Assembly: GCF_056712565.1 (NCBI RefSeq)
Contig: NZ_CM160072.1
Direction: 5' to 3' (one strand)
DNA: 64,000 nt
Part shown: piece after piece, positions 26,747 through 27,080 of the stretch
How positions within the stretch are numbered: position 1 is the first letter of the stretch
Layout: each line of letters begins with the position of its first letter
The notes under the pieces: generated by a model
The model's input: the letters and a program-made list of their open reading frames with translations, nothing else
What the model was told of the DNA's origin: nothing
The model's database searches: none
Translations under genes and position numbers: made by a program

Positions 26747-26791
26747 ATTGCCTGATTTGCAGGTTCGATTCCCTATTCGGAGATAGCACTC

Positions 26792-26992
26792 ATGCAACAC
26801 GAACTACAACCTGATTCACTGGTTGATTTGAAATTCATCATGGCCGATACTGGCTTCGGTAAAACCTTCATCTATGACCGGATTAAGTCCGGCGACCTGC
26901 CAAAAGCCAAAGTTATCCACGGGCGAGCAAGATGGTTATATCGTGACCATTGTGAATTCAAAAATAAGCTCTTAAGCCGCGCCAATGGGTAA
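26792..26992 (+). CDS. torI: TorI excisionase-like recombination directionality factor
   Basis: 66-aa ORF MQHELQPDSLVDLKFIMADTGFGKTFIYDRIKSGDLPKAK... matching recalled K-12 TorI; adjacent to attR and dsdC as in K-12. Confidence 0.9.
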   Translation: MQHELQPDSLVDLKFIMADTGFGKTFIYDRIKSGDLPKAKVIHGRARWLYRDHCEFKNKLLSRANG

Positions 26993-27064
26993 AATAGCGG
27001 GTAAAATATTTCTCACATCTAAAAAACACCATTCCAATCAATCCCCTGCCGCCTCAAGTAGATG

Positions 27065-27080
27065 TCTGCAGGGGACACCA
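27065..27080. other. attR core (argW 3'-end identity block)
   Basis: CTGCAGGGGACACCA matches the recalled 3' end of tRNA-Arg argW; preceded by AT-rich arm with GTAAAATA direct repeats. Confidence 0.65.

Follow-up and report, generated by a model that had tools for sequence, protein, structure and literature searches.

A conserved box resembling the argW T-arm lies in front of torI at a KplE1/CUS-3-type attR and may act as an operator

The genes and sites of the recombination module at one end of a prophage are located within the 64-kb stretch of DNA analysed here, which we refer to as the window (Table 1). Reading 5' to 3', an orf55-like open reading frame is followed by an intrinsic terminator with its T run, ATTGCCTGAT, the 16-mer TTGCAGGTTCGATTCC, CTATTCGGAGATAGCACTC and torI. 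Two GGGTAAAATA repeats, a P arm of about 57 nt, the core CTGCAGGGGACACCAT and the dsdC flank lie 3' of torI. The same positions are occupied by torI, the GGGTAAA P-arm repeats, the 16-bp core and the dsdC flank in the argW module of KplE1 (CPS-53), HK620, Sf6 and Kapi1. The gene order torI-attP-intS of KplE1-type phages is also found here, and the module itself shows no differences. The locus is an ordinary KplE1/CUS-3-type attR.

Upstream of the module, lambda-type phages share 96-98% identity with window positions 26540-26754, and the homology breaks off 2 nt short of the 16-mer. A terminator is present at the equivalent position also in E. coli phages that carry another upstream gene. Two more terminator-like hairpins lie in tandem just 5' of the orf55-like gene (26496-26517 and 26528-26547).

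Table 1 Features of the torI-attR region, in window coordinates.
Feature	Position	Strand	Basis or remark
55-aa ORF, lambda orf55 homologue	26567-26734	+	ORF list; last gene ahead of the recombination module
Intrinsic terminator, 8-bp stem and T run	26724-26749 (stem part 26724-26743)	+	Terminator scan; directly 5' of the box
TTGCCTGATTTGC, putative cII site	26748-26760	+	Identical bases annotated in HK620
16-mer TTGCAGGTTCGATTCC	26757-26772	+	argW T-arm match, 16/16
Conserved T-arm-like box GGTTCGATTCCC	26762-26773	+	24-sequence cross-genus alignment
Invariant box centre GTTCGATT	26763-26770	+	Alignment; includes GTTCG at 26763-26767
torI Shine-Dalgarno GGAG	26779-26782	+	Read in the sequence; aligned relatives keep CGGAGAT
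torI, 66 aa, recombination directionality factor (RDF)	26792-26992	+	ORF list; K-12 and Sf6 annotations
Two GGGTAAAATA direct repeats over the torI stop codon; IntS arm-type sites of the P arm	26987-27008	+	Repeat finder
8-bp inverted repeat, TCCCCTGC (27042-27049) and GCAGGGGA (27068-27075)	27042-27075		Spans left part of the core
T-loop-like stretch GTAGATGTC	27058-27066		Enclosed by the 8-bp inverted repeat
True attR core CTGCAGGGGACACCAT, argW 3' end plus one base	27066-27081	+	
dsdC, chromosomal flank right of the prophage	27180-28121	-	ORF list; K-12 annotation

An earlier note on this DNA had taken the piece downstream of torI for the attR core, and this assignment was borne out. The piece is the exact core of KplE1, Sf6 and HK620, the dsdC flank comes next, and the match is far beyond chance, as CTGCAGGGGACACCAT occurs once in the window where about 0.05 chance matches would be expected with two mismatches. 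The duplicated att core of KplE1 consists of exactly the 16 bases CTGCAGGGGACACCAT (PMC2951348), and the att site of Kapi1 comprises 17 bp, that is, CTGCAGGGGACACCAT and one further base (PMC8787464). In phiv205-1, a near-identical prophage (99.7% identity), attR is annotated on the core bases (27066-27082). An exact 16-bp core joined to chromosomal DNA, with arm-type sites and torI immediately inside, was found here as in a KplE1-type attR. The prophage ends at this canonical core, 294 bp 3' of the 16-mer, and since its boundary is at 27081 and not at 26772, torI is a phage gene.

The arm-type motif bound by IntS includes TAAA (PMC2951348). Two repeats of GTAAAATA had been noted in the AT-rich arm, and the repeat search confirmed them as exact copies of GGGTAAAATA at 26987-26996 and 26999-27008. 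The GGGTAAA repeats were kept in all homologous loci examined. Across genera, the inverted repeat and core take the form TCCCCTGCA...TT(C/A)GA(T/C)GT(A/C), directly followed by TGCAGGGGA. The core-type sites of IntS may be defined by the inverted repeat TCCCCTGC(A)...(T)GCAGGGGA that surrounds the T-loop-like stretch. The 9-mer ACACCATTC, formed by the end of the core and the flank (27075-27083), recurs 49 nt upstream in the P arm (27026-27034); this is about the chance level for a 9-mer in that span, and the repeat is not kept in other genera.

The 16-mer upstream of torI was compared with the K-12 argW gene (L004, 810-884), which ends in ...GGGCTAATTGCAGGTTCGATTCCTGCAGGGGACACCA. All 16 bases matched: two come from the variable loop, the next ones form the 5' T-stem and the T-loop, and the last two open the 3' T-stem. 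The 16-mer occurs once in the window, on the + strand, where 0.01 matches would be expected by chance with up to two mismatches allowed. The claim that the upstream piece is argW T-arm sequence therefore withstood both the alignment, in which the identity is far beyond chance, and the check for chance occurrence of the motif. Within argW, the 16-mer and the core piece abut with a 1-nt overlap, in which one C is common to both. Identity to argW ends at 26772, inside the 3' T-stem, so that the 16-mer is neither a tRNA gene nor a CCA-end fragment. ARAGORN detected 0 tRNA genes in the window, which places argW and attL outside it.

Base for base, the same 16-mer was found 5' of torI in K-12, Sf6, HK620, N7, HF4s, Kapi1 and further phages of known sequence, and virtually all of the 74 E. 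coli viral contigs sampled via the TorI protein carry it as well. Several of the carriers are circular or virion phage genomes. Because the 16-mer is present in free phage genomes, it is part of the phage and not the product of events at this chromosomal locus.

Fragments of tRNA 3' ends are known to flank elements integrated in tRNA genes (Reiter 1989; Williams 2002). The likeness here lies in the identity to the target tRNA and in the position near a prophage end. Unlike such flanking fragments, the 16-mer stops in the T-stem, is located inside the phage and is no crossover site. The earlier reading of an argW gene split around torI thus stood in its sequence identities and fell in its other parts, the split tRNA half and nested or serial integration at this site. 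The idea that torI separates two pieces of a single tRNA 3' half is contradicted by the P arm, which has its own in-register T-loop-like stretch beside the core. Immediately left of TGCAGG, E. coli has GTAGATGTC where the tRNA has TTCGATTCC, in the same register, and the nine bases at this place in other genera read TTCGATGTA, with the variants TTAGATGTA and TTCGAAGTA. Since a degenerate T-loop already lies beside the core, the box and the core piece are overlapping copies and not complementary halves; judged by this register, the upstream box is a second T-arm copy rather than the missing half.

Nested or serial integration at this locus is likewise at odds with the order orf-16mer-torI-P arm-core-P' arm-intS, which is unchanged in Sf6, HK620, N7, HF4s, Kapi1 and K-12. 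A version of the box of 12-14 nt was found 5' of torI homologues in several other genera, which makes it an old part of the module. The location of torI and intS at opposite prophage ends, for which a separate event had been invoked, needs none: attP sits between the two genes in the phage genome (PMC2951348, PMC8787464), and this suffices.

Conservation of the box was assessed at loci chosen by TorI protein homology, blind to the box, with one reference genome per species; viral contigs were added via queries with four different TorI variants. The box has the consensus (A)GGTTCGATT(C/T)CC, spans 12-14 bp and lies 15-20 nt before the torI start, just 5' of CGGAGAT. It was present in nearly all lineages of the clade whose TorI N-termini read M(Q/T/A)H...PDSLVDLK, and its carriers are E. 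coli, a Citrobacter-type group, Enterobacter, Pantoea, Erwinia phages and an Edwardsiella/P. stewartii group. The left flank of the box is unrelated between lineages. The TTGC 5' of the box was found only in E. coli and is the source of the full 16/16 match to argW.

In an alignment of 24 sequences, the columns GTTCGATT.CC were invariant or nearly so, the G, T, T, G, T and C columns being invariant, and the neighbouring columns varied. Mean pairwise identity was 0.91 for the 11-nt box, a value inflated by the comparison of box-positive loci only, versus 0.54 for 4-fold sites of torI and 0.62 for all of its third codon positions. Finding the same 8-mer at one fixed position across so diverse a set of contexts far exceeds chance expectation, and the identities indicate that the box has been kept by purifying selection while its surroundings diverged. 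No description of a T-arm-like box 5' of torI was found in the KplE1/HK620/Sf6/Kapi1 module literature examined. In Erwinia-type phages, the box is tandemly doubled 5' of the excisionase gene with a 17-nt period (L005, 1984-2014; L113, L115 and L119). Two copies with a 14-nt period were seen in L112, and in L011 the second copy is degenerate.

Loci that lack the box are those in which translation of torI is coupled to the gene before it (Klebsiella phage Chronis, L120), a few further lineages (EhrS_49, Tatumella) and the entire MELRED/MRELRD sister clade (L142-L163 and L170-L172; about 70% TorI identity). The sister clade has the same TGCAGGGGAC core, and in three of its loci (L160-L162) the ribosome-binding site comes directly after the terminator. 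Functional modules that lack the box are L006, L007, L015 and those of the MELRED clade. Excision in vitro works with a 135-bp attR that starts at CTCTTAAGCCGCGCCAATGG, equivalent to window position 26968 in the 3' end of torI (PMC3509656). The 16-mer is missing from this published substrate (PMC3509656), and since an attR without the box recombines in vitro, the box is not needed for recombination. Though dispensable for recombination, it has been kept in every case where a terminator precedes a separate torI leader. In the box-less modules, torI is either coupled to its upstream gene or has its ribosome-binding site immediately behind the terminator, which fits an accessory expression signal.

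We propose that the box is a tRNA-derived, DNA-level operator in the control region of torI that has been kept by selection, and that TorI is the best candidate for its predicted binder. This proposal is drawn from sequence comparison, and we regard the chances for and against it as evenly balanced. The putative operator sits between the intrinsic terminator and the torI ribosome-binding site. TorI would bind it through GTTCG, and binding would feed back on torI transcription and, in the circular phage, on read-through into attP-intS. TorI is favoured since GTTCG, which forms the invariant centre of the box, is also its recognition pentamer at the five attL sites. These sites (GTTCG, GATCG and GTCCG) were established by mutagenesis, and TorI represses PintS via them (PMC2951348). 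Repeats of aGTTCGc are visible in the P' arms of all relatives examined, and the pentamer in the box is kept in 22 of the 24 aligned boxes.

Several features count against TorI as the binder. Clustered aGTTCGc repeats were not found in the box, where E. coli has a single copy with the flank gGTTCGa, and two box copies occur only in Erwinia-type phages and L112. One GTTCG in E. coli stands against cooperative binding at five attL sites. The pentamer is followed by A in every box and by C or T in the attL sites, and six further conserved nucleotides (ATTYCC) are unexplained by the pentamer. 186 Apl and P2 Cox are small winged-helix RDFs that act on short repeated motifs at att and promoter (PMC7498355), a functional analogy to TorI. 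Their operators are direct-repeat arrays one helical turn apart, whereas the single E. coli GTTCG is a candidate site only.

A second candidate binder would be the IntS core-binding domain, as the box is equivalent to the T-loop side of attB. Box variants showed no covariation with the T-loop-like site beside the core, so IntS gains no positive support either. A P'-arm pattern search for attL with tRNA outside E. coli returned only attP sites with a different RDF, and the relation of the box to each host's T-stem was therefore deduced from the core, in which TGCAGG implies GCAGG as the 5' stem. It is possible, though improbable in our estimate, that this copy of the target's T-loop half works as an operator or decoy for TorI or the IntS core-binding domain and sets the level of the directionality factor. 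If true, occupancy by the recombination machinery would be coupled to the excise-or-stay decision. An operator for TorI or IntS would extend the KplE1 paradigm by an autoregulatory loop and would exemplify the co-option of tRNA-derived DNA for regulation. What is new is a short, strongly conserved tRNA-like box in the controlling region of a well-studied RDF whose regulation is poorly understood.

Annotations in related phages assign a promoter to the same bases. The HK620 record (AF335538) gives a 'phage integration' promoter at 1664-1702 and a 'cII protein' site, TTGCCTGATTTGC, at 1689-1701, and pI is annotated over the same bases in the Sf6 record. The terminator just 5' of the box would also make a promoter of its own sensible for torI. 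That the 16-mer is merely the -35 region and spacer of a CII-activated integration promoter, pI, is nevertheless unlikely. The TTGC repeats are spaced by N5 and not by the canonical N6, the first TTGC half is TTAC in K-12 and many E. coli prophages, and the repeats are missing outside E. coli, so that the arrangement TTGC-N6-TTGC, conserved among relatives, by which a CII promoter is recognised was not found. The part of the box conserved across genera corresponds to the predicted spacer and not to the -35 or -10 positions, and a sigma-70 promoter scan returned nothing on the + strand 5' of torI. The promoter and operator readings are compatible and not mutually exclusive. The extra TTGC of E. 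coli is lineage-specific and could be either retained ancestry or the second half of the cII-type site annotated in HK620.

The box resembles a tRNA T-arm and, by this resemblance, probably descends from one. Its likeliest origin is an ancient one-off rearrangement that put a tRNA fragment before torI. Modules with torI genes that have diverged at almost half of the 4-fold sites share the box, and this origin is therefore older than the split between the E. coli, Erwinia and Edwardsiella modules. Purely site-specific origins were worked through on paper and rejected; they comprised integration of a T-loop-type and an IntS-type phage in either order, integration of phage into phage, and aberrant excision of the lambda-gal type. 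All of these scenarios leave the T-arm beside core-P'-intS and never beside torI, which makes it necessary to postulate one or more old illegitimate joins.

Descent from a tRNA raises a further alternative to the operator, namely that the box is a neutral fossil, a functionless remnant of a tRNA 3' fragment that was stranded when an old serial integration, aberrant excision or illegitimate join put torI and the P arm between T-arm and core. This amounts to the earlier note's reading set in a more distant past. The exact 16/16 match to argW, abutting the core in tRNA coordinates, would be expected of such a remnant, as would its place exactly at a mosaic boundary, where lambda-type homology ends (26754), and its absence from some modules. 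We consider neutrality doubtful, as the central 11 nt retain an identity of about 0.9 across genera versus 0.54 at 4-fold sites of torI, with the flanks scrambled. The full 16-mer is retained only in E. coli, and with a T-loop-like stretch present in the P arm as well, no single tRNA copy was split. A fossil would presumably also require an extra illegitimate deletion, as site-specific integration always leaves the T-arm by core-P'-intS.

It was also considered that the box mimics a T-arm at the RNA level, forming a tRNA-like hairpin in the torI leader that affects processing or translation. The box versions of Edwardsiella and Pantoea stewartii do form a perfect hairpin, ACAGGTTCGATTCCCTGT, and pairing is possible between UUCC in the box and GGAG in the ribosome-binding site. 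Against this, RNAalifold gave 0 consensus pairs across 24 diverse leaders, the 3' stem is missing in the box versions of E. coli, Citrobacter and Erwinia, ARAGORN returned 0 matches, and an Rfam search (E<=10) gave nothing near the gathering score of any family, which makes such a mimic very unlikely. A structured RNA element found no support, given the absence of RNAalifold pairs and of any significant Rfam family, and the same two results favour a DNA-level element.

The prophage in the window is CUS-3-like. The last 1,733 nt of the CUS-3 record in GenBank (CP000711, 38475-40207) are the equivalent of window positions 25039-26772, with 99.94% identity, and the record stops there. CP000711 carries the identical 16-mer and labels it 'attR core' (40192-40207), and it labels its first 16 bases, inside argW, 'attL core' (1-16). 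The record starts and ends on the 16-mer, placing torI outside the phage. Bases 16-31 of the same record (L002, 1-31) are the canonical CTGCAGGGGACACCAT, and the P' arm and integrase gene of CUS-3 are of the IntS type, 176 nt from CTGCAGGGGACACCAT as in Sf6 and K-12.

The junctions that recombination at the 16-mer should produce were sought in silico in 5,426 complete E. coli genomes. The argW(5')-16mer-torI junction was found in 0 of the 5,426, and the contiguous orf55-16mer-TGCAGGGGACACCAT-P' junction (also written orf55-16mer-TGCAGGGG-P') was likewise found in none of them. Thirteen apparent full-length matches were two-piece junctions of the attP type that included torI and came from tandem prophages or circular phage records. 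The suggestion of a second integrase-recognised core at this place was therefore not upheld, as neither the predicted scars nor the predicted attP occurred in these genomes. The 16-mer shares with an att core the direct repeat at both ends; it shows neither the junction products nor a need for its presence in the excision substrate, and it is not a recombination or crossover site.

The CUS-3 label is doubted because the adjacent CTGCAGGGGACACCAT is the core of the experimentally studied KplE1 and because no junctions at the 16-mer were found in 5,426 genomes. Most likely, a 16-bp direct repeat was mistaken for the crossover site, and the evidence here points to a mis-assignment. A second functional att core, at which the integrase would join the argW T-arm to the 16-mer so that the phage ended at 26772 and torI were chromosomal, draws on the CP000711 labels that fall on exactly the 16-mer and on the end of that record at the same base, and is scarcely credible given the IntS-type integrase and P' arm at the usual distance from CTGCAGGGGACACCAT, the attR annotated downstream in phiv205-1, the empty junction search, and the fact that excision at the 16-mer would destroy argW and strip the phage of its RDF. 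The probable mis-annotation can spread into prophage boundary calls at the argW-dsdC hotspot. The new information at this locus is modest and consists of the conserved tRNA-like box 5' of torI and the probable att mis-annotation of CUS-3.

Junctions of the attP type, torI-attP-intS, were seen in some E. coli chromosomes, for example L225 (NZ_CP082824.1, 1538981-1540588), and imply tandem prophages. Some 'plasmid' records of 39,448 bp (NZ_CP081786.1 and NZ_CP081778.1) resemble circular phage genomes of the KplE1/CUS-3 family.
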